Source of the DNA: Leucoraja ocellata
Lineage: Eukaryota
Direction of reading: 5' to 3'
Assembly: GCA_036785375.1 (NCBI GenBank)
Contig: JAWMAR010000352.1
Location: 2,294,001 to 2,358,000 of the forward strand
DNA length: 64,000 bases
In this document: in pieces, positions 4,661 through 55,440 of the stretch
How positions within the stretch are numbered: position 1 is the first letter of the stretch
How the letters are laid out: every line of letters begins with the position of its first letter
Translations under genes and position numbers: made by a program
The notes under the pieces: model-generated
What the model saw: only the letters and a program-made list of their open reading frames with translations
Told to the model about the DNA's origin: nothing
The model's database searches: none

Positions 4661-4911
4661 TCTGAGCAATTTCTTGTGGTCTTGGGCAGAGCTGGTCCCA
4701 AACTAAATTGTAACGCAACCTAACAATGTTCTTTCACAGTTCATGTGGAGAAGTCGGTGTGAGTCACTGGAGAAATGCTGAACTTCCTTCATCTTTTGAG
4801 CACGATAAGACATCAGTTTAAAACCCCTGACACCCGGACGAATTCACAATCTATCTTTCTCTGCCTCAACAATATCCACTGACTGGGCTGCCACAGCCTT
4901 CTGTGGCAAAG

Positions 4912-10900: not shown

Positions 10901-11545
10901 GGCCCTGGAACTCCAATACGTCAGTGGTTGAGTAGTTTTGTACGTTGTCCCTGCGTCGTGGCAGTATTTCCCATGTTTGCTCTAGGTGACTGTTCGCAGG
11001 GATGCCGACATGGTGGTAATGGTTCATTTGGATAATCCCAGTCCCCGGTAATGTCTATTCATACCTACAACCCAGGGGTTAGATGTTTTTATGGCATGGG
11101 TGGCTTATGCCTGATACTGGGTGTCAGCAACCATGGTCCACTAGGGAATCCATAGGTGACTCGACCACCATGTCGTGATGAACTGGGAACCATGGCTGTG
11201 TAGGCCGGTCGGGCACCTTCAATATCCCGGAGGCAGATTCCATCTGTATTGCGAAGTGCCCGACTGATGAGGCAGAAGGGAGGGAAGCAAAAGCAGAAAT
11301 TCCCCCTATCCAGCGTGTAGGCATCTACCGCTGCTGCCTCTGATCTGGTTCCTCAGTCACATACATAGGTTACTGGTGATTCCGTCTTGTTGCAACCAAA
11401 TTGATATCTGGCGTTCAAATTGCTTAATACCTTTAGCAGATATTTTGGGTTTGACATCCATTCAATGTTATCGTAAATTTTCCCCCGTGACGTGGTGTCT
11501 CCCACTGTGTTCTAGCTTACCTAGGAGATAGGCAGCCGATAGTTA
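4912..11545 (-). mobile_element. DIRS-like retrotransposon copy A (5'-truncated; split by copy B)
   Basis: Terminal 79 bp (4912-4990) perfectly complementary to the ICR (5141-5219); YR remnant in ORF 10683-11027 (SYSAVNTARSALS...HPL..KLMKGIYN.KP..PRY...WD); methyltransferase-like remnant 11124-11324; interrupted at 5811/10509. Confidence 0.9.
5812..10508 (-). mobile_element. DIRS-like retrotransposon copy B, structurally complete, coding-decayed
   Basis: ~30-bp ITR (5888-5917 vs 10449-10478); ICR 6039-6152 complementary to both termini; RT remnant 8592-8801 (FVSNIF...IIDL.SLNKSVEYIHFKMET); MT remnant 7333-7521; YR remnant 6300-7250; AAT at both junctions. Confidence 0.92.
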
Positions 11546-12036: not shown

Positions 12037-12076
12037 ATGATCGGGAGATCGTTCTTCCTCCTCTCCCTTCTCCAAG
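12037..12076 (+). CDS. Siglec-like signal peptide exon ([13 protein letters not shown])
   Basis: Acceptor tttctcttccAG at 11993-11994, ATG at 12037, phase-1 donor CAAG|GTAC. Confidence 0.8.
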
Positions 12077-15000
12077 GTACCATCAGCAGCAACTCAGAAG
12101 TGTTTACGGGGAGTGATGCACTGTTGGAGGGGTGGTGAGGAGGGAGTGATGCACTGTGGGAGGGGCGGTGAGGAGGGAGTGATGCACTGTGGGAGGGGCG
12201 GTGAGGAGGGAGACTCTACCACTACGCCACCATGCTGCTCTTCTACGCTCTGTTCACACCGGGTCCACAGCGCAGGATAAACGGTGTGGAAAGTCCAGTG
12301 AACTGACAGGGTGTTCATTGCTAAAGATTGTTCCTTCTCTCCTCAGCCGTGATGTCGGGAGAGTGGAGTGCGGACAATCCCAGAGCTGTGACAGCGCAGA
12401 ACGGTTTGTGTGCACGGATTCCGTGTCGCTACAGATACCCGTCGAAACTGAACAGTGAACCACGGACTGGAATCTGGTTTAACAGTGAGTCGCACAAAGA
12501 TCCTGTAGCCTTCCACTCCGGGAATCCCAGTCTAGCAGCAACAAGGTTTCAGCATCGGACCCGGCTGTCAGGAGACCTGAGAAACAAGGACTGTTCCCTG
12601 GTTATAGACAACGTCACGCCGCAAGATGCAGGTCCTTATAGTTTCAGAGTTGAATTCGATAAGCGAAATCGTTACAACTACCCCACTGTAACAAAGCTCA
12701 CTGTTAGTGGTAAGTGCTCTGTATAATTCACTATTTCACTCAACAGTTTCTCCCAGCTGTTATCAGGCAACTGAACCAACCTACCACAACCAGAGAGCAG
12801 TGTTGAACTACTGTGACCTCACTGGTGACCCATCGGACTATCCTTGATTGGACTTTGCTGGCTTTACCTTGCACTAAACGTTATTCCCTTATCATGTATC
12901 CATACACTGCAAATGGCTCGATTGCAATCATGTATAGTCTTTCTGCTGAGGCAGATAGTAGTTCAGGACCACTCCCTGGTTGTGGTAGGATGATTCAGTT
13001 GCCTGATAACAGCTGGGAAGAAACTGTCCCTGAATCTGGAGGTGTGTGTTTTCACACTTCTATACCTTGTAAAAACATCCTTGCTCGTGTGGGACTGGGA
13101 TTTCAATGTGAACCGATATATCCAGTGATATTTAACTAACAGTATTTGTTTCTCTGTGTGTTAGATTTCACGGATAAACCCACGATATTCCCAGCTGAAT
13201 TGGTGGCAGGAAAGCCTGTGGACATGACCTGCTCCTTCAGCACCACGTGTGATGGAACGAAACCCACCTTAACCTGGGTCACCCCCGCTGATGTACCACC
13301 GTCAGCCTCACACAGCGTAACTCAGCACGGTGACACTCTGACATATACTTCTGTTCTGTCCCTGACCCCAGCGCTCAAACATCACGGGCAAAACCTCACC
13401 TGCAGAGTCACATACCCAAATGTGTCATCGGAGCAGACCCTCACACTGAATGTGGAATGTAAGTACGGAGATCGTATATTGTGCAGGAACATCAATAATC
13501 TATTAGCAGCGCTGGTATATAAGGTCATAGACGATAGGTACAGAATTAGGCCATTCAGCCCATCAACTCTACTCTGCCACTCAATCATGGCTGATCAATC
13601 TCTCTCTCCTAACCCCTTTCTTCTGCCTTCTCCCCATATCCACTGGCACCTGTACTAATCAAATCAACACCAAAAGCTGGAGAAACTCAGCAGGACAGGC
13701 AGCATCTCTGGAGAGAAGGAATGGGTGACGTTTCAGATCGAGAACCTTCTTCAGACTGAAAGTCACGGGAAAGGGAAACGAGAGATATAGACGATGATGT
13801 AGTGAGATGTATGACCTACCTGATCTCCTGGTTGCTAAACACATTAATTCTCCTTCCCATTCCCACACTGAACTTTCTGTCCTCGGACACCACCATTGTC
13901 AGAGTGAGGTTAAATGCAAATTGGAGGATCAGCATCTCATATTTTGTTTGGGCAGTTTACAGCCCAGTGGTATGTATATTGATTTCTCTAACTTCAGGTA
14001 GCCCCGGCATTCCCTCTCTCTCCATCCCTCCCCCACCCAAGTCTCATCAGCTTCTCGTTCTCACACAACAAACTACAAACAACGGCCTATTCCCTTTATC
14101 ATCGTTAATCTTTTGCATATCTTTCATTCTTTGTTCTATATGTCTCTACACCATCGTCTATATCTATCATTTCCCTAAACATAGAACTAGTGTGTGAATG
14201 TGTGATCGATGGTTGGCGCGGACTGCGTGGGCTGAAGAGCTTATTTCCGCAGTGGATCTCTAAAGTCTGCAGACTAAAGTCTTTTACAAGGGACACCGAA
14301 AGTGCCGCAAAACTGGTTGCTGAATGTTATCTGTTTGCAGACGCCCCCCAGAATCTCTCAATCACTTCCCCCCGACAATGTGAACAATTCCTGGGTCAGT
14401 ATAAAGGAAGGAAACTCTGCAGCGATCCTCTGCTCCCTCCAGAGTTTCCCAGCGTCTAACCTGACGTGGAGACATCAGTGTCACGCCGAACACACAACGA
14501 GCTGTGGATAGACATAGACATAGACATAGAAAATAGGTGCACGAGGAGGCCATTCGGCCCTTCGAGCCAGCACCACCATTCATTGCGATCATGGCTGATC
14601 GTCCCCAATCAATAACCCGTGCCTGCCTTCTCCCCATATCCCTTAATTCCACTAGCCCCTAGAGGTCTATCTAACTCTCTCTTAAATCCATCCAGTAACT
14701 TGGCCTCCACTGCTCTATGTGGCAGGGAATTCCACAAATTCACAACTCTCTGGGTTAAAAAGTTTTTTCTCACCTCAGTCCTAAATGGTTTCCTCTTTAT
14801 TCTAAGACTGTGGCCCCTGGTTCTGGACTCGCCCAACATTGGGAACATTTTTTGTGCATCTACCTTGTCCAGACCTTTTATAATTTTACATGTTTCTATA
14901 AGATCTCCCCTCAACCTTCTAAACTTCAGTGAATACAAGCCTATTCTTTACAATTCCCTCAGCTGACAGGGAAGGATGCTGGGGTCTATCAGTGTGTGGC

Positions 15001-15124
15001 GGAGAATGAACATGGGACAGCAGAGAGGGATGTGACCCTCACTGTAGAATGTGTGTAGATACACACTGTCATGTCTATGTAAAGGCAGATGGTTTATTGG
15101 CCCATGAGAGATGCTGGAATTCAC

Positions 15125-27100: not shown

Positions 27101-30100
27101 CTTTGATCCGTTCTTGTAAAACGGGATGATATTTGCAAATTACCAACCTTCATGAACCACTCCTAACTCTAGTGATTCTTGAAATATCACAACTAATGCC
27201 TCCACAATCTCTCAGGCCACCTCATTCAGAACGTTGTGGTGCAGTCCATCTGTTCCAGGTGACTTATCCATCCTCAAACCTTTCAGTTTTCCTAGCACCT
27301 TCTCCTTAGTAATCGCCACTCCACTAACATTCACCCCCTGTCTCTCTAGGATTGCATGCACACTGATGGTGTCCTCCACGGTGAAGACTGATGCAAAAAA
27401 GTTATTCAATTCCTTTTCCATTTCTTGACTTCTCCTGCATCATTCTCCAGCGGCCCAACGTCCACTTTTGCCTCTTTTATTACTCTTTATATATCCATAG
27501 AAACTCTTGGTATCATCTGTTACATTATTGGCCAGCTTACATTCGTACTGAAGATAGACACACAAAAGCTGGACTAACTAAGCGGGACAGGCAGCATTTC
27601 TGGAGAGAAGGAATGGGTGACATTTCGGGTCGAGGCCGTTCTTCAGGCTGATTAGGGATAAGGTAAACGATGGATACAGACTCTGCTCCGTCCAGAGTTT
27701 CCCAGCATCTAACCTGACGTGGGTACATCTCGGTTTCATGCTGAACACAAGATGTTCCAGAAACGAGCTGTGGATGGAGTTCCCTCAGCTGGCATGGCAG
27801 GACGCTGGGGTCTATCAGTGTGTGGCGGTGAATGAACATGGGACAGCAGAGAGGGATGTGACCCTCACTGTAGAATGTGAGTAGACACACACTAACACAT
27901 CCCTCAAAACGTCATAAATGATAGGGGCAGAATTAGAATGTCGAATGGCCAAGGCTACTCCACCATTCAATCATGGCTGATCTATCTCTCCCTCCTAACC
28001 CCATTCTCTTGCCTTCTCATAGAGCCATAGAGTTATAGAGCCATTGATTCATGGAGTCATAGAGAGTGATACAGCTTGGCAACAGCTCAACTAGCTTTCA
28101 ACAGCCTACTAGTCCCAGCTACATTAGTCCCACCTGCCCATGTTTGGCCCATATCCCTCCAAACTTGTCCTAACCATGTACTTGTCTGTTTCTTAAATGC
28201 TGGGATAGTCCTAGCCTCAACAACCTCCTCTGGCAGCTCATTCCATACAACAACTACCCTTTGTATGAAAAAGTCACCCCCTAGATTCCTTTTAAATCTT
28301 TTCCCCTTCACCTTGAACCTACGTCGTTTGGTCGTCGATTCACCTACTCTGGGCAAGAGACTTGGTGCATCCACCCGATCTATTCCTCTCATGATTTTAA
28401 ACACCTCTATAAGATCACCCCTCACCCTCCTGCTCTCCAAGGAAGAGAGTCCCAGCCTGCTCAACCTTTCCCTATAGCTCAGGCCCTCTAGTCCTGGCCA
28501 CATCCTCATGAATCTTCTCTGCACCCTTTCCTGCTTGACAACATACTTCCTATATTTTCTCTCTCCTCTTCTAAGATAAGGAAGATTAGATAAAATTATT
28601 TGAAGCATTGTGTGCAGTTCTGGTCACCCCATTACAGGAAGGATGTGGTCAGGGTGCACAACGCTGCCTAGTTTAGAGAGTATTACCAATAAGGAGTTTT
28701 AAGGGGGGCACACAGTGGTTCAACGGTAGAGTTGCTGCCTCACAGCACCAGAGAGCCAGGTTCAATCTTCACTACGGGTGCTTGTCGGTACAGAGTTGGC
28801 AAGTTCATCCCATAACCTACGTGGGTTTTCTTCGGGTGCTCCGGTTTCCTCCCACACTCCAAAGATATACAGGTGTGCAGGATAGTATGGCTTGGTATAT
28901 TTGTAAATTGTCCCTAGTGTGTGCAGGATAGTATATGTGTGGGGATCGTTGGTCATCTCTGGAGTTCATGTTCATAAGTGATGGGAGCACAATAAGGCCA
29001 TTCGGCCCATCAAGTCTACTCTGCCATTCGATCATGGCTGATCTATTTCTCCCTCCCCTGCCCCATTATCCTGCCTTCAGCCCATAGCCTCTGACACCTG
29101 TACTAATCAAGAATCTATCTATCTCTGCCTTAAATATATCCACTGACTTGGCCTCCACTGCCGTCTGTGACAAATAATTCCACAGATTCACCACTGTTCA
29201 AAGGCTGAACGGAGACCTGATAGAAATATATAAAACTATGAGTTGCATTGGGAAGGTAGACAGTCAGAATCTTTTTCACATGGTGCAAATGTCAAGGTTG
29301 AGAGGGCAGAGCTTTAAGGTGAGAGGGGAAAATTGTAAAGGAGATGTGCGGGGCAACTTTTACAATACGATACAACACAATATAACTTTATATATCCCTG
29401 GAGAGAACTAAATACACAAAATACACAAATACAAAATACTTGAAATATGAAATTAAAGTGACGAGTGGAAAGGCTTGGGGGCTGTGCAAAGATTACGTGG
29501 GAGGGGGGGGGGGGGCGATGGGGAGGCGAGTCAGTCTCAGTCTACACTACGACAGAAGGGGGAGGAGTTGTACAGTTTGATAGCCACAGGGAAGAAGGAT
29601 CTCCTGTGGCGTTCTGTCCTGCATCTTGGTGGAACCAGTCTGTTGCTGAAGGTGCTCCTCAGGTTGACCAATGTGTCATGGAGGGAGTGAGCTGTATTGT
29701 CCAGAATGCTCCACAGTTTGAGGAGCATCCTCCCCTCCAAGACCAACATCCCATGAATCCAACTCCGCTCCCAGAATGGAGTCGACCTTCTTGATGAACT
29801 TGTTGATCCCATTGGTGTCTGCAGACTTCGCCCTGTTGCCCCGGCACACGGCAGCGAAGAAGATGGCACTGGCCACCACCATTAGTAGAACATCAGCAGC
29901 TTCTTGCTGCAGATGTTGAAGGAGTGGAGCCTTCTCAGAAAGCTCTTGTAGAGGACTCAGAGTTCTTGGATCAGTCCTGTTTACTAAAGATAGACACAAA
30001 ATGCTGGAGCAGCCAAAAATGCTGTAGAAACAATAGACAATGGACAATAGACAATAGGTGTAGGAGTAGGCCATTTGGCCCTTTGAGCCAGCATCGCCAT

Positions 30101-33100
30101 TCAATGTGATCATGGCTGATCATCCCCATTGGGCTTTATTCTTTCGAGCGCAGAAGGTTAAGGGGGGACTTGATAGAGGTTTTTAAAATGGTGAGAGGGA
30201 TAGACAGAGTTGACGTGGAAAAGCTTTTCCCACTGAGAGTAGGGAAGATTCAAACAAGGGGACATGACATGAGAATTAAGGGACTGAAGTTTAGGGGTAA
30301 CATGAGGGGGGACTTCTTTACTCAGAGAGTGGTAGCTGTGTGGAATGAGCTTCCAGTGAAGGTGGTGGAGGCAGGTTTGTTTTTATCATTTAAAAATAAA
30401 TTGGATAGTTATATGGATGGGAAGGGAATGGAGGGTTATGGTCTGAGCGCAGGTATATGGGACTAGGGGAGATTATGTGTTCGGCACGGACTAGAAGGGT
30501 CGTGATGGCCTGTTTCCGTGCTGTAATTGTTATATGGTTATATGGTTATCAGTACCCCGTTCCTTCCTTCTCCCCATATCCCATGTCTCCGCTATTTTTA
30601 AGAGCCCTATCTAGCTCTCTCTTGAAAGTATCCAGAGAACCTGCCTCCACCGCCCTCTGAGGCAGAGAATTCCACAGACTCACAACTCTCTGTGAGAAAA
30701 AGTGTTTCCTCGTCTAATTTCAAAATGGCTTACTCCTTATTCTTAAACTGTGGCCCCTGGTTCTGGACTCAATGCATTTTGTTGTCTCTGTACTGTACAC
30801 TGACAATGACAATTAAAATTGAATCTGAATCTGAATCTGAATCTGACTCCCCCAACACCAGGAACATGTTTCCTGCCTCTAGTGTGTCCAAGCCCTTAAC
30901 AATCTTATATGTTTCAATGAGATACCCTCTCATCCTTCCAAACTCCAGAGTGAACAAGCCCAACCGCTCCATTCTCTCAGCATATGACAGTCTTGCCATC
31001 CCGGGGATTAATCTTGTAACCCTACGCTGCACTCCCTCAATAGCAAGAATGTCCTTCCTCAAATTAGGGGACCAAAACTGCACGCAATACTCCAGGTGTG
31101 GTCTCACTAGGGCTCTGTACAACTGCAGAAGGTCCTCTTTGCTCCTATATTCGATTCCTCTTGTTATAAAGGCCAACATGCCATTCACTTTCTTCACTGC
31201 CTGCTGTACCTGCATGCTTACTGATGTTTTAGGACCCCCAGATCCCATTGTACTTCTCCTTTTCCCAACTTGACACCATTTAGATAGTAATCTCCCTTCC
31301 TGTTTTTGCTACCAAAGTGGATAACCTCACATTTATCTGCATTAAACTTAATCTGGATGCATCTGCCCACTCCCCCAACCTGTCCTAGCCACTCTGCATT
31401 CTCATAGCATCCTCCTCACAGTTCACACTGCCACCCAGCTTTGTGTTACCTGCAAATTTGCTAATGTTACTTTGAATCCCTTCATCCAAATCATTGATGT
31501 ATATTGTAAATAGCTGTGGTCCCAGCACCGAGCCTTGCGGTACCCCACTAGTCACTGCCTGCCATTCTGAAAGGGACCCGTTAATCCCTACTCTTTGTTT
31601 CCTGTCTGCCAACCACTTCTCTATCCAGGTCAGCACTCTACCCCAATACCATGTCCCCTAATTTTACCCACTAATCTCGTATGTGGGACCTTAGTTGAGT
31701 ATGTGTTTTGTTATTTATTCTATGTTATGTTATGACTGCAGGCTAAACCATTTAGTTGCACTGAATGACAATAACATTGAATCTGAATCTGAATCAAATG
31801 CTTACTGAAAGTCCAGGTACACTACATCCACTGGCCCTCCCTTGTCCATTTTCTGAGTTTCATCTTCAAACAATTCCAGAAGATTAGTCAAGTCAAACTC
31901 AGCGGGTGAGGCAGCATCTATGGAGCGAAGGAAATAGGCAACGTTTCGGGTCGAGACCTTTCTTTAGACCGATGTGAGTGTAGGGCGGGGCGGGAAGAAG
32001 AAAGGAAGAGGGCTGTGGGAGAACTGTGGGCTGAGGGAGAACTGGGAAGGTGAGGGTAAAGCCGGTACTACCTGAAATTAGAGGTCAATGTTCATACCGC
32101 TGGGGTGTAAACTGCCCAAGCAAAATATGAGGTGCTGCTCCTCCAATTTATGATGGGCCTAACTCTGGCCATGGAGGAAGCCCAGGACAGAAAGGTCGGA
32201 TTCAGAATGTGAGGAAGAGTTGAAGTACTGAGCCACTGGGAGATCAGGTTGGTTATTGCAATGCTGGAGTAACTCAGCGGGACAGGCAGCATCGCTGGAG
32301 GGAAGGAATAGGTGACATTTTGGGGCGAGGCCTTTCTTCAGACTGGTGATATTTGTATAAGGTACTTGTACTCCCTGGTAAACTGTTTAACAATGGAGAG
32401 CATCTGCAACACACTGCCAAGGGCAGTGATGGAGGCAGATAGGACAGATCCTTCTCTCCAGAGATGCTGCCTGTCCCGCTGAGTTTAATCCAGCATTTTG
32501 TGTTTGATCTCCTAGAAATATAGAAAAATAGGTGCAGGAGTAGTCCATTCGGCCCTTCAAGCCAGTACCACCATTCAATATGATCTTGGCTGATCTACTA
32601 AAATCAGTATCCCCGAGTCCTGATTTTTCCCCATCCCTTGATTCCTTTAGCCCTAAGCGCTAAATCCAACTCTCTCTTGAAAAAGATCCAGTGAATTGGA
32701 CTCCACTGCCTTCTGCGGCAGATAATTGCACAGATTCACAACTCTCTCATGTCTTGTTCCTCCTTCTCCAGATGCACCAGTGATTTCCTGGGATTCGGGA
32801 TGCACTCACACACCTGAGAGTGTCACCTGTGTGTGTGCGGCCAGGTGCAACCCACCCGGAGAGCTCACCTGGCACCTCCCCCTCGCCAACTTCAGCGGAA
32901 ATCAAACCCGCGGACATCTCCACACCTGGCAGGTGGCAAGCGGGCATCTGGTGAATGGCTCCCTCACTCTGAGAGGGGGTGGGGGAGGAGAGGACGTGAC
33001 GGCCGTGTGCTCAGTCCGAAACCGGCACGGGGAAGCCATGTTCATGGTGTATCTGTGGACGGAAGGTGAGGACATTTATGGGCGAGGGAAGTCAGAGAGC

Positions 33101-38082: not shown

Positions 38083-41000
38083 GCTTTATTTCAGATACAG
38101 GTCCATATAACACATCAAACAGTATAAAGAATTACAAAAATACATTAAAAAATTGCATATTAGCCTAAAAGATATACAAGCTATTGCACCAATGCTGTCT
38201 TAGCCTAGAAGTGAATCTATAGCAGCTTTTCAGAGGGCTGACTAGGGCTTCAATTATGTGGTTCTCTGACTTGTCCAGGCGACACATAAAACTAAACATC
38301 AGCTGTCTTAAGAGTGCCTCACAGGTTGGCACTCTAGTAGACAGAGACAATTGACTGGCACTATGCCACCTAGGAACACGAAGTAGCAACCTCATTGCAT
38401 CATTGTACGCTACCTTAAGCCTCTGCATACACCTTTTCTTATAATTAGACTACAATTGAACAGTATATAACGGTGTGATGTAGGTTCTGAACAGGGAACA
38501 CTTCACAGAGTCAGAGCACATAGAAAACTTCCTTATAAGCATGTTGGCTTGAAGATAAATTTTACAGCGCTGTCGGTAGAGGTCTTTGTCATCCGTCCAG
38601 TCATCAGATATGACATGACCTAGGTATTTAATTTCCTCACACACTGCAAGAGGACTGTCTGACAAATAAAAGGTCGGAAAGGTTGATTCCCTGTCCTCAG
38701 CGCTACTAACTATCATTATGCGGCTTTTCTTAGCGTTATTCCCTTTATCCTGTATCTGTACACTGTGGACGGCTCAATTGTAAACATGTGTTGTCTTTCC
38801 GCTGACTGGATAGCACGACACAAAAGCTTTTCACTGTACCTCGTTACACGTGACAATACATTATACTGAAAACACACCTCTGGTTGTTCTTACAGATAAA
38901 AGCTTCAGTATTTGGATACAAGTTTTGCTCAGACCAGGGATAATAATACTGATGGCTGTGCTAGCTGGATTCTTCATCAACAAGTATATACTGCGGTAAG
39001 TTTAAATAAATCCACATTTTTACGAGAATGGTTAACATATGATGACCGTTTGTCACTTACTGGGCCTGTAGTAGCTGGAGTTTAGAAGGATGAGGGGGAG
39101 ACCTCATTGAAATGTAGTGAATAGTGAATGGCCTGGATTGAGTGGATATGGAGTGGATGTTTCCAGTAGTGGGATAGTCTGGGACCAGAGGCGACAGCCT
39201 TAGGATTAAAGGACTACCTAAAGGAAGAAGAGGAGGAGTTTCTTCAGTCAGAGGGTGGTGAATCTGTGTAATTCTTTGCCACAGAAGGCTGTGGAGGCCA
39301 AGCCAATCGATAGGTTTAAGGCAGAAATAGATAGGTTCTTGATCAGTACGGGAGTTAGGGTTATGGGGAGAAGGCAGGAGAATGGGGTTGAGAGGGAAAG
39401 ATAGATTCAGCGGAGTAGAATTGAATTGCAGAGTAGACTTGATGGGCTGAATGGCCTAATTCTGTCCCTTGAACTTATGAAGGGTGGAGCCCACAATGGC
39501 ACTTTGTTAGCTGGGGAAGGAGTGCTAAAGACACGGATAGAAGGATGCGAACATCTAAACCTGTCCCATCCATGTACCTGTCTAACTGTTCCTTAAATAT
39601 TATTCACATGGCTCAACTACTTCCTCCGGTAGCTCGTCCCATTCATCCACTACCCTTTGTGTGAAAATGTTAGCGCTGAGGTTCCTATTGAATCTCCCCC
39701 CCCCCCCCCCCCCACACCTTAAAGCTCTGTCCTCTGCTCCATGATTCCCCACTCTGGGCAAGATGCTCTGTGCGTCTACCCGATCTATTCCTCTCATGAT
39801 TTTAAACACCGCTATAAAATCACCCCTCATCCTCCTGTGTTCCAAGGAATAGAGAAGCCGCCTGCTCATCCTCTCCCTGTAGCTCAAGCCCTCGAGTCCT
39901 GGCAACATACACGTAAATCTTCACGGCACCCTTTCAAACTTGACAACATCTCCCCGACAATATGGTGCCCAGAACGGAACACAATACTCTAAATGCATTG
40001 AAACCTACTGAATAGTGAAAGGCTTGGATTGAGAGGATGTTTCCACTAGTGGGAGAGTCTAGGACTAGAGGTCGTAGTCTCAGAATTAAAGGACGTTCCT
40101 TCAGGAAGCAGATGAGAGGAATTTCTTTAGTCGGTGGTGAATCTGTGGAATTCTTTGCCGCAGAAGGCTGTGGAGGCCAAGTCAATGGATATTTTTTAAG
40201 GCAGAAATGGATAGGTTATTGATCAGTACGGGTGTCAGGGGTTATGGGGAAAAAGGCAGGCAAATGGGATTAAGAGGAAGAGTTAGATCAGGCATGATTG
40301 AATGGCAGAGTAGACTTGATGGGCCGAATGACTTCATTCTGCTCCTATCATTAATGACCTCATGACTTTATGACCAACATCTAATACAACTGCAACTTTG
40401 TACTTGGACTTTGCTGATGTGCTGTAAACTTGGTGTGATCTTCTGTTGCTGCAGGAGGGAAGATGCTTCAGGAAACCAAGACCCCAATGTGCTGAACAGC
40501 CCATACTCTGCCATCAATCAGGTAGTGGAACTTTGTATTTAATCTCAAATACGGATGATACAAACGTGGGTACAAAAAGCTGGAGTAACTCAGTGGAACA
40601 GGCAGAATCTCTGGAGAGAAGGAACAGGTGATGTTTCGGTCGAGACTCGAGGGGCCTGAGCTACAGAGAGAGGTTGAGGAGGCTGGGATTCTATTCCTTG
40701 GAGCGCAGGGTGATGAGGGGTGATCTTATGGAGGTGTATAAAATCATGAGAGGAATAGATCGGGTAGATGCACACAATCTCTTGCCCAGAGTAGGGGAAT
40801 CGAGGACCAGAGGACATAGGTTCAAGGTGAAGGGGAAAAAAATCTGAGGGTTAACTTTTTCACACAAAGGGTGGTGCGTGTATGGAACGAGCTGTTGGAG
40901 GAGGTAGTTCAGGCTGGGACTATCCCAAAGTTTAAGAAACAGTTAGAAAGGTACATGGACAGGACAAGTTTGGAGGGATATGGACCAAGCGCAGGCAGGT

Positions 41001-41578
41001 GGGACTAGTGTAGCTGGGACATGTTGGCCGGTGTGGGCAAGTTGGGCCGAAGGGCCTGTTTCCACAATGTATGACTCTATATAGAAGGTGATGTAGAGAG
41101 AGATAAAGAACAATGAATGAAAGATAGATGTAAACAAAGTAACGATGATAAAGGAAACAGGCCACTGTTAGTGGTTTGTTGGGTGAAAACGAGAAGCTGG
41201 TGCGACTTGGGTGGGGGAGGGATGGAGAGAGAGGGAACACAGGGCTACCTCAAGTGAGAAAAATCAATGTTCATATCACTGGGCTGCAAGCTGCCCAAGC
41301 GGAATATGTGATGCTGGTCCTGCAATTTGCGTTTAGCCTCACTCTGTCAATGTTGGACAGAAAGGTCAGTGTGGGAAGGGGAATTAAAGTATTTAGCAAC
41401 CGGGAGTATGAATATTGATGTATCTAACCTCATGAGTGTGTGTGAGAGAGGGTGTGAGTGTGAAAGAAAGTTTGAGAGAGGGAGACAGTGCTAGAAGGGG
41501 GGGGGGGGACAGAGTGTGTGAAACTGCGAGTTTGAGACAGAGTGCGTGAGGGAGAAAGAGCAGAGTGAGAAAGAAAGA

Positions 41579-41626
<48 letters not shown>

Positions 41627-41966
41627 TGAGAGAGAGAGAGGGAGGGAGAGAGAGAGAGTGAGAGTGTGTGAGAGGAGAACATAAACAACATGGCTGAACC
41701 TGGGTCTGTGGGAGTTCAGGAGTTGTGAACCTTCTCGCTGATGGTATTAAATGCCGGGCCACACTGCTCTGTACTAAACCCACAACTGCCCGTCTGCTTC
41801 CCTTTCCTTCCAGAGCGCGGGGAGTGGAGAGAACGGGCCGGCCCCAGTGGAGCGGAAAGGAGGAGGGGAATCGGTAAAGGGAGAAGAGCAAGTGGCCGTG
41901 TACGCCAACCTGCAGGAGGTGCTGAGCAGCGGAGACACTGGGCACAGTGGCGAGCAAAGATACTAG
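12037..41966 (+). CDS. Siglec/MAG-like sialic-acid-binding Ig lectin (spliced model: 12037-12076, 12347-12709, 13165-13458, 32772-33065, 38896-38995, 40455-40521, 41814-41966; 1311 nt, 436 aa)
   Basis: All junctions GT-AG with compatible phases (1,1,1,1,2,0); signal peptide, V-set, two intact C2-set domains, TM, cytoplasmic SPYSAI and AVYANL; two further Ig exons are broken, so functional status is uncertain. Confidence 0.8.
12109..12210 (+). repeat. 33-bp minisatellite, 3 copies, in the Siglec intron
   Basis: GGAGTGATGCACTGT(T/G)GGAGGGG(T/C)GGTGAGGAG repeated three times. Confidence 0.9.
12347..12709 (+). CDS. Siglec V-set domain exon
   Basis: [14 protein letters not shown] and D.G.Y.FRVE; essential Arg codon AGA at 12646-12648; acceptor ctcctcAG and donor G|GTAAGT. 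Confidence 0.93.
13165..13458 (+). CDS. Siglec C2-set domain 2 exon
   Basis: DFTDKP...[15 protein letters not shown]...YTSVLSLTP...[10 protein letters not shown]...TLNVE; extra Cys for the inter-domain bond; donor T|GTAAGT. Confidence 0.92.
13667..14175. mobile_element. inverted pair of Penelope-like 3' fragments
   Basis: Minus-strand 3' end with hammerhead-like region (13724-13758) joined to a plus-strand GIY-YIG end ([14 protein letters not shown]...[19 protein letters not shown]). Confidence 0.7.
14341..15050 (+). pseudogene. disrupted Siglec Ig exon 3 (frameshifts plus CR1 insertion)
   Basis: YAPQNLSI...[21 protein letters not shown] and [30 protein letters not shown] halves; extra C at 14368-14373; deletions near 14475-14497; CR1 at 14510-14951. 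Confidence 0.88.
14510..14951 (-). mobile_element. CR1 3' fragment inserted in an Ig exon
   Basis: ORF 14609-14938 (RRLRGDLIE...RTRGHSLRI...[12 protein letters not shown]); (TCTATG)n tail at the left end. Confidence 0.9.
15128..15320. repeat. (CA)n/(CT)n microsatellite
   Basis: direct inspection. Confidence 0.95.
15325..15460 (-). mobile_element. tRNA-derived V-SINE 5' part
   Basis: Reverse complement starts GGCGGCACGGTGGCGCAGTG (A box) and contains GGGTTCAATCC (B box). Confidence 0.75.
15826..16187 (+). mobile_element. CR1 3' fragment
   Basis: [27 protein letters not shown]; very similar to the 14510-14951 family. Confidence 0.85.
17645..18486 (+). mobile_element. GC-rich non-autonomous retroelement with (TTGTA)n tail, nested in a CR1 3' end
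   Basis: Ends AATAAATTTGTATTGTATTGTA; the CR1 3'UTR is continuous across it (GGCCCTACAAGT|...|AAGTCCATGCCG). Confidence 0.55.
18487..19190 (-). mobile_element. young CR1 subfamily 3' part (close relatives at 30131-30548 and 34050-34656)
   Basis: ORF 18634-19074 ([32 protein letters not shown]). Confidence 0.88.
19590..20035 (-). mobile_element. probable hAT-type non-autonomous element end
   Basis: Minus-strand terminus CAGGGGCTACGGAGCG...; partner end not identified. Confidence 0.35.
22344..22848. mobile_element. PIF/Harbinger-type MITE
   Basis: TIR AG(T/G)GCC(A/T)GTCCCACGAGCATGCGACTGCATGC; TAA duplicated at 22341-22343 and 22849-22851; internal duplication of the left end. Confidence 0.85.
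23406..23511 (+). mobile_element. 106-bp Penelope-like 3' fragment with 14-bp TSD
   Basis: TGAGACATAAAGCC at 23392-23405 and 23512-23525; the insert matches about 58334-58408 apart from a nested (CTATGTTT)n tract. Confidence 0.85.
25030..27545 (-). mobile_element. nested CR1 fragments
   Basis: RT motifs [29 protein letters not shown] and [10 protein letters not shown] in several minus-strand ORFs. Confidence 0.85.
27681..27876 (+). pseudogene. 5'-truncated Siglec Ig exon 4 (paralog of exon 3)
   Basis: Open frame [18 protein letters not shown]...[25 protein letters not shown] with intact donor T|GTGAGT; acceptor and 5' third replaced by a PLE fragment (about 27550-27680). Confidence 0.88.
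28020..28555 (-). mobile_element. CR1 3' fragment
   Basis: ORF 28087-28608 [22 protein letters not shown]. Confidence 0.85.
28703..28958 (+). mobile_element. V-SINE/HE1-type SINE
   Basis: tRNA-like head followed by the V domain GGGTGCTCCGGTTTCCTCCCACACTCCAAAGA. Confidence 0.85.
29362..29960 (-). mobile_element. Rex1/Babar-like LINE 3' fragment
   Basis: [12 protein letters not shown] and [20 protein letters not shown]; (TTGTA)n-like tail. Confidence 0.7.
30030..31890 (-). mobile_element. CR1 RT/3' fragment with nested CR1 and short Rex1-like 3' ends
   Basis: ORFs 30769-31248 and 31385-31636; (GAATCT)n-tailed inserts at about 30770-30846 and 31690-31797. Confidence 0.85.
32772..33065 (+). 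CDS. Siglec membrane-proximal Ig exon (MAG domain-5-like)
   Basis: [34 protein letters not shown]...GSLTL...VCSVRNRHG; acceptor ttctccAG and donor G|GTGAG. Confidence 0.9.
35621..36034 (-). mobile_element. non-autonomous Helitron
   Basis: Minus strand reads A|TCTATC...CTAG|T (5'-TC, 3'-CTAG, AT target, no TSD); imperfect subterminal hairpin near 35632-35648; interrupts CR1 ...AAAGTA|TTTGATAAGG. Confidence 0.8.
36290..37266 (+). mobile_element. Rex1/Babar LINE RT and 3' end
   Basis: ORF 36316-37080 ([30 protein letters not shown]); (TGAATC)n tail. Confidence 0.9.
38003..38740 (-). mobile_element. RTE-X-like LINE 3' part with (AAT)n tail
   Basis: ORFs 38450-38716 and 38165-38428 ([21 protein letters not shown]); long (TTA)n at 38003-38082; clade call tentative. 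Confidence 0.6.
38896..38995 (+). CDS. Siglec-like transmembrane exon ([34 protein letters not shown])
   Basis: Acceptor ttgttcttacAG; donor CG|GTAAGT; phase matches the preceding Ig exon; hydrophobic segment. Confidence 0.85.
39030..41400. mobile_element. cluster of CR1 and PLE fragments in Siglec introns
   Basis: CR1 C-terminal motifs in ORFs 39600-39908 and 40037-40222; PLE 3' pieces at about 40570-40645 and 41085-41400. Confidence 0.75.
40455..40521 (+). CDS. Siglec-like cytoplasmic exon with ITIM (SPYSAI)
   Basis: Acceptor ttgctgcAG; phase 2 in, phase 0 out; [23 protein letters not shown]|GT. Confidence 0.78.
41433..41675. repeat. (GA)n/(GT)n microsatellite tract
   Basis: direct inspection. 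Confidence 0.9.
41814..41966 (+). CDS. Siglec-like terminal exon with ITIM-like AVYANL
   Basis: Strong acceptor cttccctttccttccAG; SAGSGENGP...[13 protein letters not shown]...RY*; TAG at 41964-41966. Confidence 0.8.
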   Translation, partial: SAGSGENGPAPVERKGGGESVKGEEQVAVYANLQEVLSSGDTGHSGEQRY

Positions 41967-42670
41967 AGGAGCTACTCCACTAGTAGCTTTGGTGGCGAGG
42001 GGGTGGAATACGCTGAGCTCTGGTTCCACTCCAAGCAGGGGAAGGGGTAGGTGGGAGGAGGGAGAGAGGAGTGGTATGGAGGGGGGGAGGGGAGGGGTGG
42101 TGAGGAGGGAGGGGAGAGGTGGTATGGAGGGGGGGAGGGGATGGGTGGTGAGGAGGCAGCGGCGTGCTATGAGAGGGGCAGTGAGGAGGGAGAGGCGATG
42201 GGGAGAGAGCGCTGCACCAGCCTTAACTGCCTTGGGTTTCATAGATTAATTAACCCTCTGTAGATGACATAGTGGGATAACATAGAACTAGTGTGTGAAT
42301 GGATGATCGATGGTCGGTGCAGACTCGGTGGGCTGAAGGGCCTGTTTCCCCGCTGTATCTCTTTAGAAAAGCCTTTGTTTCTTTAGAACACAGACTGTTC
42401 CGCGGGTAACTATTAACATTGACAATAATTGCTTCTATCAAATGATAGTCTGTTAAACACAGTCTTTACCTGCAGTTACAAAATCCACTGGTAGCTATTA
42501 AATGAAGACTTTTATTTTTTGACAATCCTGTGGGATTGTTGCTAATATTATTCTGAAGCTCTTGCTGTTGTAGCACCATGTTCTATAACAAGTTTCATAG
42601 CAAGCAACTCTCTGTGTGGCATTGGTGAGTAATAATAATAATGAAATGCAGACGCTGGAAATCTGACAAA

Positions 42671-44873: not shown

Positions 44874-46305
44874 ATTACTGCCTGTCCATTATCGTCAATA
44901 TTCAGGCAACAATTAGAGAAGTTGAATTTTCCACACACCCCTCCTTTTTCGGCTAGGATGTAGTCCAGGGCCAATCGATTTAGGTATATTGCTGTTCTCA
45001 TCTGTGTTTGCTCCTTTGCCAACATCTCTAGTGCTGCAGCCGTCCGATGAGTGATCACCTCCAATACAGCCTGCAATCGGATTATCCGGTTTAGCATGTA
45101 CACTGGGGTACGATATCCCCAGGAACCATCCTGAGCCCAGGTGGCTGGCCCATAGTATGAGATGATTCGGGCCGGAGGCCACTCATCATCCTCCCAGGTT
45201 CCTATGTCTAACTCTCTTTTCTTCCTTTGTAAGTCATCAAACACTGGCGTGCCCAGCATTCGTCCTCCTTCATCTGGCAACAAAAAGAATCCCGGCTGCA
45301 CCAGCCCAATAAAACACGCTCCACTCCATTTTCCCAGAAGTACTGAATAGGCCTTATGTCCACAGATCCAGAGTAATCCCTCTGGAGCAGGTCCACTCAC
45401 CGTGTTACTTTCCCAGAGATCCCGTAAGACTGGTAACCCCATATGGGTTGTTTCCTGTGCAGTTCCAGATCCAGCTCTTGTCTGTCTTGTCTCTGACTGG
45501 GGCAATGATTGTACAGTTCTCCCAGTCCTCTTCGGCCAGATACCATTTAGGTTGCTCAGGCCACCAGGTCCGTGTATGGTTTTCCCACAAGGTTAGGATG
45601 CGTTGACAAGGACTGATGCCGACTTCTTCTTTCCCCGGAGTTCTTGGTCGGGCTATACATTCCGTTCCTAGTGGAGTGTCGGTCAAGAGCCACTCCTGAG
45701 GTCCTGGATCTCCTCCTTCCGTGATGTTCCACTCAAATAGGTCCCACACTTCGACAGTTGATCCCCTCCAAGGCCATCGAGAACTCATAAAAGGTCCTCC
45801 ACAAACCCAGCAGTCCTTAACATCCAGCGTCTGAGCAATCCTGGTCCACGAAGAGATTCCCTCCCAATTCAGGAATTTCTATCTGCTTCTGTATCTCCTC
45901 GTACAAGGATGCATATAGTTGAGGTCTCTTAGTTGGGGCTGGTTGAGTTATCTCTTTTTCTTGTAGCCCCTTTATCAGTATTTCCTTTTCCTTGTCTAAA
46001 TATTCCTTCCCCAACTGGGACCCTGTCCCCCATTGCCCGGTTTTCCATTAGCAAAGCCATCTCTCTCCTCTGGGGCAGATTCAATACATCCTCATTCCTG
46101 TGTATCCCAAATTCTGCACTAAGTAGTATTCTACTCCCTCCTTACAACTGGTTCTGGTTTTATGGGTATAACACGAGTCATGCACATAGAAATGATAGGT
46201 AAAATACCTTCTGGTTTGTCCGCCATATCTGCTGGGGTGGTAACATTTATCACAGCTGTCCATACATTTACTTACAGCGACGATCATAATTAGCACGAAT
46301 GCCAA
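44874..46305 (-). pseudogene. env: ERV env, frameshifted and truncated before the membrane anchor
   Basis: Signal peptide; CWVCGGP; furin site RKKR; [37 protein letters not shown]; [14 protein letters not shown]; CX7CC. Confidence 0.9.
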
Positions 46306-46323
46306 GCACTGTATCGTAATCTT

Positions 46324-49300
46324 TTAGTTCAATCGTTCTTTATCAAAGATCAGAGTCAGTGGTTTCTTTCCTTGTCTTACTGTCCAGTCCCCCTCAGCCG
46401 GAGGTTCCACTGGTCCCTTTATTCGCACTGCGTGTGTCCACCCTTTTTCTTTTGTCCGCACTGCTGTTTCCGTGGTCAATAGTACCAAATACGGACCAGT
46501 CCAACAGGGTTGCAACTTTTCTTCCTTCCACGATTTTACAAGGACCCAGTCTCCCGCTTTCACAGAATGGATCGGAAAGTCAAGAGGGGGGATTTCGTAG
46601 GGGGATACTGCTATATCCTTTTGTGGAGCGGTTCGAATTCTGAGCAAGGCTATTGGCAAACACTTAGTCCAAGGTAGCCTAGTCTCCTCCATTAATTTGG
46701 TAATTTGTGTCTTCAAAGTGCCATTCATCCTTTGCACCATTCCCGGACTTTGTGGATGCCAGGGAGTATGCAACTTCTATTTTATCCCTAGGGCATCACA
46801 GATGAGCAAGTGGGCCTTTGAGGCGAAATGGGTTCCTCGATCTAAATCGAGAGATTCGATGATTCCATACCGCAAGATTATTTGTTCCAATAGAATTTTG
46901 GCTACCACCTGAGAAGTGGCATTTACTGTGGGGAATGCTTCCACCCAACGGGTAAAGTGATCCACCACCACTAGGAGGTATTTCTATTTCTGTATCCTGA
47001 TGAGTTCACTAAAATCTACCTGTACTCTCTGGAATGGCCTGATGGCTAACTGCTGCCCTCATCACTTTCTTATTTATCTTCTGACAGATCACACAGCTTG
47101 AGACTCCTTGTTTAGCCAGAGTGTATATCCCCCTGCAAGCATACGTACGTAAAAGAGTGTCACATAATGCCTGAGCCCCCAGTGTGACTGGGAATGTAAT
47201 CTTCCCAATAATTCTCTGATAACCTCCTTATTTAGCAGTTGCTTCCCATCCGGTGTCCACCATCGTCCATCTTTTGTTATTCTTGCTCTCAGCTCATTCA
47301 TCCTATCTATATCGAATTCGGAGAACACGGGTATCTTCTCTATCCCTTCCCTGAGAGGTATTAGAGACATTATCTTTACCGTCCCCTGTAAAGCTGCCCG
47401 TTTTGCCGCCTCGTCCGCGGCTCTGTTTCCCCGGGCCTCTGGAGAATTTCCCTTCTGGTGTCCTGCCACATGTACTACTGCTATTTGCTCTGGCTTTGTT
47501 AATGATTCCAAGGTTTTCTCAATCAACTTTTCATGTGCTAACTCTTTCCCTCTCGCTGTTATCATTCCCCTCTCCTTCCAAATCTTTCCAAAGGTATGCA
47601 CCACCCCAAAGGCATATATTAAATCAGTATATATGGTGCCTTTTTTGCCTTCAAGTAACTCCAATGCACGCATCAGGGCATAGAGCTCACAAGACTGAGC
47701 TGACCAGCTCCCAGGTAATCGTCCAGATTCTATATCACTTAACGTATCCCCGTCGATTATAACGTATCCACTGTGTCTTTTCCCATCTATGCACCAGGAT
47801 GACCTGTCTATGAACCATCGGCTTCCCTCGGCCAGAGGCTGTTCCTCAAGGTCTTCCCTACTCTTGGTCTGCAATTATATTATTTTGCTACAATCATGCT
47901 CTGGGTTCCCTGTCTCCTCTTCTTTTTCTTCGGGCGGGTACAGGAACTGAGAGGGGTTTAAGTTTTTGTCCGTATTTATGGTCAAATCATCCTTTTCCAT
48001 CAGAATAGCTTCATATTTTAATATCCTCGAGTGTCAACCACCTACAAGACTTCTGTGTCAATATTGTTCTTACTGTATGTGGGGTGGAGACCACCAAGGC
48101 CCCCCGAAGGTCAACTTCCTGCTCTCCTCTACTAGGTTTGCTGTGACTGTATACAGACAGGCCATCCTCGTGACACTGGGTCCAATATCTTTGATAAAAA
48201 TGCCACGGGCTGCCCGTTTACCCCTCTCCTTTTGAGTCAATACCCCGAGAGCTATCACGTTTTCTGCATTTACAAACAGATGGAAGGGTTGGTCTATTCA
48301 AGGCAGGGCCAAGACAGGGGTGGTTATCAAACTATTCTTCAGCTGGTGGAAATCCTGTTGTTCTTTCGGGTCCCATTCTACCTTATCTTTCTCATCTCCT
48401 AGCTTATTATACAAGAACTGGACTTGTCTGACGTAGTCATCAAACCAGAGTCTACAGTACCCAATTAGCCCCAGAAATGTTCTGATTTCCTTTTTATTCC
48501 GAGGCATCGGCAAGCCTGTGATTCCTGCGATTCTTTCAGGTTTTATTCTTCGTTTTCTCCCACTAATCATGTGGCCCAGGTACTTCACCTTTTGTTCCAC
48601 AAACTGGGTATCTTTGATACCCTCAGACCCTTTTGTCCCAGGAAATTCAGTAATATTATAGTGGCATCTCACACCTCCCCTTCTTCTTCTCCAGAGATCA
48701 GTAGGTCATCCACATACTGCAAGAGCTGGATCTGGGGGGGGACATGGGTATTCCTCTAACACTTGTTCCAAGATTTGGCCGAACAGGTTTGGAGATTCTG
48801 TAAATCCCTGAGGAAGTACTTTCCAACGGAACTGTTGCTTTCTTCTAGTTATTGGGTTTTCCCATTCAAAGGTGAACAAGTCTCGGGTTTCCTCATCCAA
48901 GGGACAACTCCAGAAGGCATCTTTTAGTTCTGCCACACTGAACCACTTGTGACTGGGGGGTATCCGTCCCATAACCGTGTATGGTTTGGGGACCACAGGA
49001 TGTCTACCCCGGACCACCTTATTTAGTTCTCGAAGATCTTGTACAAGCTGGAATGTTCCATCCGTCTTCCGTACGGGTAAGATCGGGTATTATAAGGAGA
49101 CATGCAACTTTCCAATACTCCCTCCTTCAATAGATTTTGCATGATTGGTTGGAGTCCCTTTCGTCCCTCGATGGAGATGGGGTACTGCCTGACTCGCACG
49201 GCATCATACCCTTCCCGGAGGGCTATCCGGAGGGGTGGTATTCTTAATCCCCCTCTATTTCCTTCCTTAGCCCAGATCTGGTCATTGATCCTCTGTTCGT

Positions 49301-49650
49301 CTTCTTCTTTTAGTTTATATAGTTGGACCACTATCCGCCCTTCTACAGGTGCAGTTCCTATTCCTAACTGGATCTGCAGATCCTGTCCCATTAAGTTTAC
49401 TCCGGCCTGTGGAACTAGAATCAAATCTTCCACCGCTTCCCTATTTTCATATTTGACTTTTACTCCTTCTATCACTTTCCCTCCTACTCCAGAAATGTTC
49501 ACATGCCCTTCTCCTGTTGCCATCCCTTTGGGTATTCTGGTCACACTTGATCTCTCAGCTCCCGAATCCACCATGAACACTGTGTCTTCTCCTTGGGGTC
49601 CGAGTTTTAAATTTACTAGGGGTTCCCGTTTGTGTCCAGTTAATAACATT
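46324..49650 (-). pseudogene. pol: ERV pro-pol pseudogene
   Basis: ORFs 49023-49649, 48706-49017, 48298-48672, 47089-47874, 46777-46971 and 46324-46773. Confidence 0.92.
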
Positions 49651-50340: not shown

Positions 50341-50757
<417 letters not shown>

Positions 50758-52506: not shown

Positions 52507-55440
52507 GTGTTTAAGAGGGAACTGCAGATGCTGGAGAATCAAAGGTTACACAAAAAAGCTGGAGAAACTCAGCGGATGCAGCAGCATCTATGGAGCGAAG
52601 GAAATAGGCAACGTTTCGGGCCGAAACCCTTCTTCAGACTGATCGGGGGCGGGGGTGGGTGGGGACAAGAAAGGGAAAAGGAGGAGTAGCCCGAAGGCTG
52701 GGGGATGGGAGGAGACAGCAGGGGGGCTGAGGAAGGGGAGGAGACAGCAAGGACTAACAAAATTGGGAGAATTCGATGTTCATGCCCCCGGGATGCAGAC
52801 TCCCCAAACGGAATATGAGGTGCTGTTCCTCCAATTTCCGGTGCTGCTCCCTGTGGCCATGGAGGAGACCCAGGACAGAGAGGTCGGAGACGGAGTGGGA
52901 GGGGGAGTTGAAGTGCTGAGCCACCGGGAGGTCAGCTTGGTTATTGCGGACCGAGCTGAGGTGTTCGGCGAAACGATCGCCCAACCTCCGCTTGGTCTCA
53001 CCGATATAGATCTGCTGACATCTAGAGCAGCGGACGCAATAGATGAGGTTGGAAGAGATGCAGGTAAACCTCTGTCGCACCTGGAACGATTGCTTGGGTC
53101 CTTGAACGGAGTCGAGGGGGGAGGTAAAGGGACAAGTGTTGCATCTCTTGCGGTTGCAAGGGAAAGTGCCCGGGGAGGGGGTGGACCGAGAGGGAAGGGA
53201 AGAATTGACAAGGGAGTTATGGAGGGAGCGGTCTTTGCGGAAGGCAGATATGGGGGAGATGGGAAGATGTGGCGAGTGGTGGGGTCACGTTGGAGGTGGC
53301 GAAACTGACGGATTACTTTTTGTATGTGACGGCTGGTGGGGTGAAAGGTGAGGACTAGGGGGACTCGGCCCTTGTTGCGAGTGCGGGGATGGGGAGAGAG
53401 AGCAGTGTTGCGGGGTATGGAGGAGACCCTGGTGCGAGCCACATTTATGGTGGAGGAGGGGAACCCCCGTTCCCTGAATAGTGAGGACATTTCAGATGTC
53501 CTGGTGTGGAACGCCTCATCCGTGGAGCAGATGCGGCGTAGACGGAGGAATTGGGAGTAGGGGATGGAGTCCTTACAGGAAGCAGGGTGGGAAGAAGTGT
53601 AGTCCAGATAGCCATGGGAGTCAGTGGGTTTATAGTGTATGTCGGTCAGGAGTCTATCACCTGCAATGGAGATAGTGAGGTCAAGGAATGGTAGGGAAGT
53701 GTCGGAAATGGTCCAGGTGTATTTGAGTGCCGGATGGAAGTTAGTGGTGAAGTGGATGAAGTCAGTCAGTTGTGTGCCGGTGCAGGAGGTGGCACCAAAG
53801 CAGTCGTCGATGTAGCGGAGGTAGAGCTCGGGGATGGGGCCCTGGTATGTATTGAACAAGGATTGCTCGACGTAACGTACAAATAGGCCGGCATAGCTGG
53901 GGCCCATGCGTGTGCCCATAGCTACGCCTTGTATTTGGAGGAAATGGGAGGAGTCGAACGTGAAGTTATTGAGGGTAAGGACCAGCTCCGCTAGGCGGAG
54001 GAGAGTGTCAGTGGCTGGGTATAGGTTGCTTCTCTGGTCGAGGAAGAACCGGAGGGCTATGAGACCATCGTGGTGGGGGATGGAGGTGTAGAGTGATTGG
54101 ACGTCCATGGTGAAGATGAGGGGGTGAGGGCCTAGAGAATTGAATGCGCGGAGACGACGGAGAGTGTCTGAGGTGTCTTGAACATAGGTAGGGAGGGATT
54201 TAACCAAGGGTGATAGGATGGAGTCAAGGTATTTGGAAATGAGTTCGGTGGGGCACGAACAGGCGGAGACAATGGGTCTTCCGGGACAGTCAGGTTTGTG
54301 GATTTTAGGGAGAAGGTAAAATCGGGCTGTGCGGGGCTGGGGAACGATGAGGTTGGAGGCTCGGTCGGGTAGGACATTGGAGTGGATGAAGTTGGTGATG
54401 GTGCTGGAGATGGTGGCCTGGTGCTCGTCAGTGGGGTCATGGTCCAGGGGTAAGTAGGAGGAGGTGTCCGATAGTTGGCGCGTGGCCTCAGCTTTGTAGA
54501 GATCGGCGTGCCAGACTACCACGGCACCTCCCTTGTCAGCGGGTTTGATAACCAAATCTGGGTTGTTGCGGAGTGAGTCGATGGCAGAACTTTCATGTGG
54601 TGAGAGATTGGAGTGAGACAGGGGAGTGGAGAAGTTGAGGCAGTTGATGTCGCGACGGCAGTTATTGATAAAAAGTTCTAAAGCCGGAAATTGGCCACGA
54701 GGGGGGTTCCACGAGGAGGGGGTGCGTTGGAGACGGGAAAAGGGGTCATCAGTGGGGGGCGAGGACTCCTTCCCATGGAAGAAAGCTGTGAGGCGGCGGC
54801 GACGGTAGAAGCGCTCCAAGTCGTGGTGGGCGCGGAATTCATTGAGGTGGGGACGGAGGGGGACAAAGGTAAGACCTCTGTTGAGGACGGTCCGTTCGGT
54901 GTTGGAGAGGGGGAGGTCGGGGGGGATGGTGAACACTCGACAGGGATGGGGGTTGGGGCCGGAGGAAGGCAGGTGGGGACGAGGCGATGTGTGGTGGGGG
55001 GGTGGTGGGTGGTCAGGGGGTGGGGTGGTGAGAGGGCTGTGGTGTGGGTGGGGAAGAGCAGGGGCCACACAGTTAGAGGGGGTGGGGGGAGGAGACTTAC
55101 AGTTAGAGGGGGTGGGGGGAGGAGACTCAGTCGAACTGCCACTGAGGTAGACCAGGCTGGGTCGACTGGCACTAGGACCCAGTGGAGTCAAACCCAGGAG
55201 AGTGGGAGAAAGCAGCGTGAGGGCTTCAGGCCCAGTGGAGAGTCCAGGCTCCAGGTAAGGCGACGGCTGTGGGTTGTTGGAGGGAGGTGGAGTGGCGCGG
55301 GTCAGCGGACCCGATGGTGAGAGTCCAGTGGTGCGGGTCAGCGGACCCGATGTTCGGAGTCGATGGGCGGTTGAGTCGGGGTCCGCGGGCGATGTGTGGG
55401 AGGTCCCGGTGGGCGGATGGTCGGCGGTGCGGTGCAGCGG
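52507..55440 (-). mobile_element. Penelope-like (Neptune-type) element, left arm
   Basis: ORFs 52780-55614 and 52754-53080: KPADKGG, MDVQSLYT, GVAMG, YLRYIDD; GIY-YIG LIYCVRCSRCQQIYIGET. Confidence 0.95.
52607..52641 (-). ncRNA. minimal type I hammerhead ribozyme motif
   Basis: Exact reverse complement of 58311-58345. Confidence 0.7.

Follow-up and report, generated by a model that had tools for sequence, protein, structure and literature searches.

Can a single Siglec-type receptor join an arginine for an activating adaptor to tyrosine motifs for phosphatases, or does such a mixture mark a receptor that is changing from one kind into the other? The question is raised by a locus in a 64,000-nucleotide stretch of DNA from Leucoraja ocellata (here called the window), for which a first-pass annotation had proposed a possibly dual-signal Siglec of a cartilaginous fish with a transmembrane (TM) Arg and two inhibitory-type Tyr motifs in its tail. 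The gene lies on the plus strand and spans positions 12037-42050, and the feature first described comprises its last three exons; two broken Ig exons were absent from that description. Its exons are, in order, signal peptide, V-set, C2, two further Ig exons, an exon resembling MAG domain 5, TM and two tail exons; the splice sites are all of the canonical AG/GT type. By blastn, a second V, C2, D5 or TM exon was not found within the 64-kb window. The features are as follows:

12037..12076, plus strand: coding part of the signal-peptide exon, same sequence as the N-terminus of the Amblyraja protein P0047
12347..12709, plus strand: Siglec V-set exon, intact (Pfam V-set, 4e-11), essential Arg at 12646-12648
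13165..13458, plus strand: C2-set exon, intact (Pfam C2-set_2, 1e-9)
14341..15050, plus strand: Ig3a exon, broken by a frameshift near 14370, two small deletions and a ~440-bp repeat insertion at ~14512-14950
27681..27876, plus strand: remnant of the Ig3b exon, without its 5' third and acceptor, 86-94% identical to pieces of Ig3a
32772..33065, plus strand: membrane-proximal Ig exon, MAG domain 5-like, intact (MAG residues 395-479, E 1.5e-9)
38896..38995, plus strand: TM exon of the Arg type, Arg codon AGA at 38931-38933, Pro codon at 38934
40455..40521, plus strand: first cytoplasmic exon, SPYSAI at 40498-40515
41814..41966, plus strand: final coding exon in its present form, AVYANL at 41895-41912, premature TAG at 41964-41966
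41947..41999, no strand assigned: 37-bp palindromic insertion (41955-41991) with an 8-bp target duplication, terminal inverted repeats matching at 11 of 12 positions
42000..42050, plus strand: cut-off ancestral tail with the canonical ITIM VEYAEL (42003-42020) and the ancestral stop, by comparison with P0047

The ectodomain bears out the proposed Siglec-like identity. The V-set matches sialoadhesin (1e-20) and MAG (5e-18), and its F-strand essential Arg, intact as had been claimed, aligns with Arg97 of sialoadhesin. Siglecs carry three cysteines in the V-set and an extra one in C2, and the exon translations contain this set. The C2-set exon is 91-94% identical to five skate relatives; the membrane-proximal Ig exon has MAG residues 395-479 as its best PDB match and shares 89-90% identity with Amblyraja paralogs. 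Every named match in the ectodomain searches (46 proteins; 120 of 126 matches listed) comes from a shark, ray or skate. A quick IQ-TREE phylogeny, with SH-aLRT support only and with the 123 of 144 relatives that passed a length filter, places the window gene near P0047 in a 28-row clade (SH-aLRT 100) whose named members are all skates, which supports the suggested cartilaginous-fish origin. The gene is a real MAG-like Siglec paralog in a skate-only clade. It has the V-set, three further Ig exons and the D5-like domain in common with MAG (Siglec-4); unlike MAG, it is one of many fast-diverging paralogs, and 'MAG-like' refers here to the resemblance in domains.

Two of the five Ig exons are broken, the deletions in Ig3a having been read by eye against Ig3b. 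Both can be skipped in frame, all Ig exons having the same phase, and the number of Ig domains differs among relatives. A model without the two Ig3 exons is 1311 nt long and encodes 436 amino acids with zero internal stops. Five of six lesions, counted by eye, fall (p about 0.01) into the two Ig3 exons, whose share of the coding DNA is 29%. Because the lesions cluster in this way, the other exons look constrained, which suggests that they stayed under constraint once the Ig3 exons had been dropped.

The TM exon and its Arg codon read as first annotated, and a check of the TM boundaries by hydropathy puts the Arg into the N-terminal half of the membrane-spanning stretch. The best-scoring hydropathy window contains it whichever of the four lengths is used (position 4, 4, 6 and 8 of 17, 19, 21 and 23), as do 11 of the 12 top windows, the remaining one excluding it; by hydropathy, then, the gene has the basic residue inside the membrane that characterizes activating Siglecs. 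A hydrophobic segment is present in 105 of the 144 relatives. Among 40 aligned relatives, the Arg column holds Thr in 25 and Arg or Lys in none. Identity between the window TM and that of P0047, which is of the Thr type and joined to an ITIM-bearing tail, is 78%. No Arg-type TM occurs among the 181 retrieved proteins, so that the annotation may be missing this exon. A TM-plus-tail search of cluster representatives returned 40 matches, of which five were family members, none Arg-type, and the other 35, which match over short repetitive stretches, were put down to chance; scanning metagenomes for the TM pattern returned no match.

The aligned relatives first suggested that the Arg was private to the window copy, as the first-pass annotation had warned it might be, but this was ruled out by genomic contig sets of three other organisms (X1, X3 and X4), aligned to window positions 38850-39040 only. 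Arg-type TM exons are present in all three (X1 records 3 and 4, X3 record 12, X4 record 17), and Thr-type contigs occur beside them, so that the Arg-containing and Arg-less versions called for at the outset were both found. The window's G at 38932 makes up a third of the depth in X4 and about half in each of X1 and X3, contig depths not being copy numbers. Phased by unique depth sums, the Arg-type contigs agree with the window in Gln at -4, in the Arg and in a third Ile; at +1 they read Thr and at +7 Ser. These Gln and Ser residues lie on one helix face with the Arg, a pattern spotted post hoc. The window's Pro codon (38934) is in no contig of X1, X3 or X4, and its Ile (38916-38918) and Asn (38979) also differ from the Arg-type contigs. 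All three of these changes, which occur only in the window, are non-synonymous, and the private Pro and Asn point to a weakened window copy. In X3 record 9, codon 38931-38933 reads Lys on a Thr-type background (depth 125). The agreement of X4 with the window extends into the intron, across about 39022; other contigs diverge there. An Arg-type TM exon is thus present in skates, and it derives from the inhibitory Thr-type exon. Summed word depth in X3 reaches about 47,000 at 38870-38905 and 38975-39020, against hundreds in X1 and X4. RNA run X23, of which about 6% was covered, had 0 reads on 38850-39040; with X1, X3 and X4 it makes up the four runs compared out of 24 candidates.

The end of the gene differs from that first assigned. 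The stop at 41966 was brought in by the 37-bp insertion, which is flanked by an exact 8-bp duplication and carries the in-frame TAG; behind it the ancestral frame resumes with VEYAEL, which had been overlooked. We take the insertion to be MITE-like, from general features of hAT elements. Its pattern of duplication and terminal inverted repeats occurs once in the 64-kb window, and two ends at 44245 and 50300 resemble its terminal repeat, have no matching target duplication and possibly belong to a related element family. The cut-off tail is identical to P0047 at 15 of 16 residues, and so slight a divergence weakly suggests a young and perhaps private insertion. A canonical ITIM (LEYAEL, VEYAEL and VEYADL) forms the distal motif of the relatives P0047, P0002 and P0048, whereas that of the window copy lies behind the premature stop. 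The predicted tail nevertheless has 73 residues and two Tyr motifs and is not the short Tyr-free tail of activating Siglecs. Of the two motifs that had been claimed as inhibitory, SPYSAI fits (S/I/V/L)xYxx(I/L/V) and is the only remaining one to do so; AVYANL is present, yet its Ala at Y-2 fails the strict pattern. Where SPYSAI has its Tyr, the three closest relatives (again P0047, P0002 and P0048) have a His, and stingray paralogs also vary between His and Tyr there, without the aliphatic residue at +3. The inhibitory half of the dual-signal claim is thus weak for the window copy. Among the 34 family tails with both Tyr motifs, the ITIM pattern is met by the distal motif in 22 and the proximal one in 11, with at least one in 31, and the proximal YANL-type motif is conserved across these tails. 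The first tail exon has 23 residues, six of which match neither P0047 nor P0002. Translation past the donor of the TM exon (38994-38999) runs into an immediate stop, and intron retention would therefore give a tailless form.

A different Arg-bearing TM is found in eight of the 144 relatives:

P0068, P0070, P0103, P0117 and P0139: shark proteins whose tails have about 7-14 residues and no Tyr
P0011, P0013 and P0023: stingray proteins, one short-tailed and two long-tailed, the long tails looking like annotation run-ons

The best ectodomain identities of these proteins to others are 91% (P0068-P0042), 91% (P0070-P0126), 87% (P0103-P0040) and 94% (P0023-P0024), and 79-80% for P0117 and P0139. In the best-matched ones, ectodomain identity to Tyr-tailed paralogs from the same species is thus 87-94%. 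Highly similar ectodomains on Arg short-tailed and Tyr-tailed proteins make the classical paired-receptor pattern, and this separate class is likely to consist of activating paired receptors. The window TM is unrelated to the shark Arg TMs (z about 0); the stingray Arg TMs score z 2.7-3.6 against the window and about 0 against P0047, and compared with the shark ones z is 3.6-4.5 for P0023 and 1.1-1.3 for P0013. In other skate and shark paralogs (P0002, P0030, P0035, P0048, P0090 and P0095) a Glu lies within or ends the TM segment. The skate paralogs P0059, P0063, P0065 and P0067 have an uncharged TM and a tail of 6-7 residues, and might be decoy receptors.

Our preferred, still tentative, reading is that the window gene records a switch from an inhibitory to an activating receptor of the kind seen in short-tailed KIRs, since it shows both KIR-type changes, the TM charge and the tail stop. 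The 436-residue product, formed by skipping both dead Ig exons, would consist of V, C2 and D5-like domains, the TM and the 73-residue tail, and would bind sialylated ligands. Its TM Arg would engage the paired Asp residues of a dimeric ITAM adaptor, more likely of the FcR-gamma or zeta type than DAP12, judged from the Arg position, and the receptor would signal with little SHP-1 recruitment. The product would serve as a counter-receptor to its Thr-type inhibitory siblings. Stop codons in a last exon are not expected to trigger nonsense-mediated decay, and since the premature TAG sits there, the transcript should escape it.

The comparison with known systems is close in some respects and loose in others. 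As described in PMC2213150, activating KIRs arose by two changes, a TM charge and a tail stop; like the window gene, they gained a basic TM residue, lost the ITIM to a stop and are nested among inhibitory relatives. Their basic residue is a Lys, that of the window gene an Arg placed in the outer TM half; the stop in the window gene, unlike theirs, was brought in by an insertion and follows the proximal Tyr motif, and the activating role of its product is a prediction. PMC6890642 describes Siglecs that pair with DAP12 through Lys or Arg, and an Arg alone therefore does not name the adaptor. Mouse CD33 has a TM Lys and no bona fide ITIM (PMC6890642), and together with Siglec-14, -15, -16 and -H, all with a basic TM residue, no bona fide ITIM and inhibitory relatives as here, it is covered by PMC6890642, PMC4042635 and PMC5701461; the window gene differs from them in belonging to a MAG-like five-domain elasmobranch family of separate origin and in having kept a long tail. 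For FcR-gamma, PMC13107469 reports that CD89 (FcalphaRI) binds it through an Arg near the top of the TM (QNLIR), and PMC4536121 that NxxR marks its partner receptors. Like the window gene, CD89, GPVI, LILRA, NKp46 and OSCAR have their Arg in the N-terminal TM half (same two sources). With CD89 (PMC13107469) the window TM (QVLLR) has Gln -4 in common, whereas it lacks the Asn at -3, and thus the NxxR motif, and the window gene's ectodomain is unrelated.

For the switch speak the Arg codon kept in all three contig sets and the Lys at the same codon in one X3 contig, Gln -4 as in CD89 with Ser +7 on the same face in the other organisms, a TM near that of the Thr-type P0047 and unlike the shark Arg TMs, the lack of Arg or Lys in the column among aligned relatives, and the lesions gathered in Ig3 exons beside others that look constrained. 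Against it stand the missing NxxR, the lack of any Arg-type TM among the retrieved proteins, the perhaps young and private insertion, the non-synonymous window-only changes and the two Tyr motifs left in the tail. The non-synonymous window-only changes are also a reason why a somewhat less likely alternative comes close behind, in which the window copy is a pseudogene allele from the Arg-type lineage, dead or in decay, whose mix of motifs does nothing. Two dead Ig exons, an insertion-borne stop, a Pro directly after the Arg, an Asn in place of an interfacial Tyr, the divergent first tail exon and the fact that no stored protein is encoded by the window locus would all fit decay. The open 1311-nt model with canonical splice sites and the essential Arg argues against it, as do lesions confined largely to skippable exons in a family with varying Ig number.

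That the window copy itself signals both ways, the Arg recruiting an ITAM adaptor and SPYSAI and AVYANL recruiting phosphatases, as first proposed, appears improbable. Dual-motif receptors with a TM Arg and a Tyr-bearing tail exist in KIR2DL4 and chicken CHIR-AB, the window gene differing from them in the removal of its canonical ITIM. SPYSAI fits the broad consensus, the YANL-type motif is conserved family-wide and the Arg is common to three organisms; however, the canonical ITIM that the three skate relatives share is the distal motif, and the window copy has lost it, AVYANL is non-canonical without its -2 residue, and the SPYSAI Tyr is not conserved. The dual-signal reading is partly supported for the lineage, more so than for the window copy, and a dual-signal type is possible in other Arg-type copies. 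Least probable, in our view, is an inert Arg that snorkels at the outer interface, or a helix that begins at Pro-Gly, which would leave a weakened inhibitory or decoy receptor. The neighbouring Pro, the absent NxxR and the one top hydropathy window without the Arg agree with this, but other Arg-type copies read Thr instead of Pro, and a second basic state (Lys) at the codon and the companion polar changes on one face argue against it.

An inhibitory-to-activating process is already known from mammals, and PMC6890642 describes a TM basic residue and an ITIM as mutually exclusive in mammalian Siglecs. A broader scenario, which we consider unlikely, is that skates hold a multi-copy, truly dual-signal Siglec lineage with a TM Arg on an intact ITIM tail, and that the 37-bp transposon remnant in the window copy represents the second step of the switch, ITIM removal. 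If so, recurrent gains of Arg or Lys from Thr at one codon, together with the separate Arg-bearing, short-tailed class of sharks and stingray, would mean that cartilaginous fish invented activating Siglecs more than once. Our preferred reading, if right, would add the oldest jawed-vertebrate lineage to those in which inhibitory receptors have repeatedly given rise to activating ones (KIR, Ly49, Siglec-16), a transposon insertion being what removed the ITIM. If the window copy is simply dead, it reflects ordinary birth-and-death in an immune gene cluster. In the open-access literature we found no paper on elasmobranch Siglec TM types or on such a switch, and no source on skate signalling adaptors; the available portions of PMC13358205, PMC4042635 and PMC6288428 hold nothing on cartilaginous fish.

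Several further features lie around the gene. Upstream, nested repeated blocks at about 4900-11500 look retroelement-like by eye. On the minus strand, at about 44900-49650, lies a broken retrovirus-like element with a stop-free piece that matches Pfam RVT_1 (4e-12), the rest being read by eye. An open stretch of 983 codons at 55221-58169 (plus strand) shows reverse-transcriptase-like and GIY-YIG-like motifs by eye, had no match in Pfam and is presumably Penelope-like; a similar stretch lies inverted at about 53000-54900. A histone H3 gene at 50347-50757 (plus strand), 8 kb downstream of the Siglec gene, has a premature TGA at 50695.
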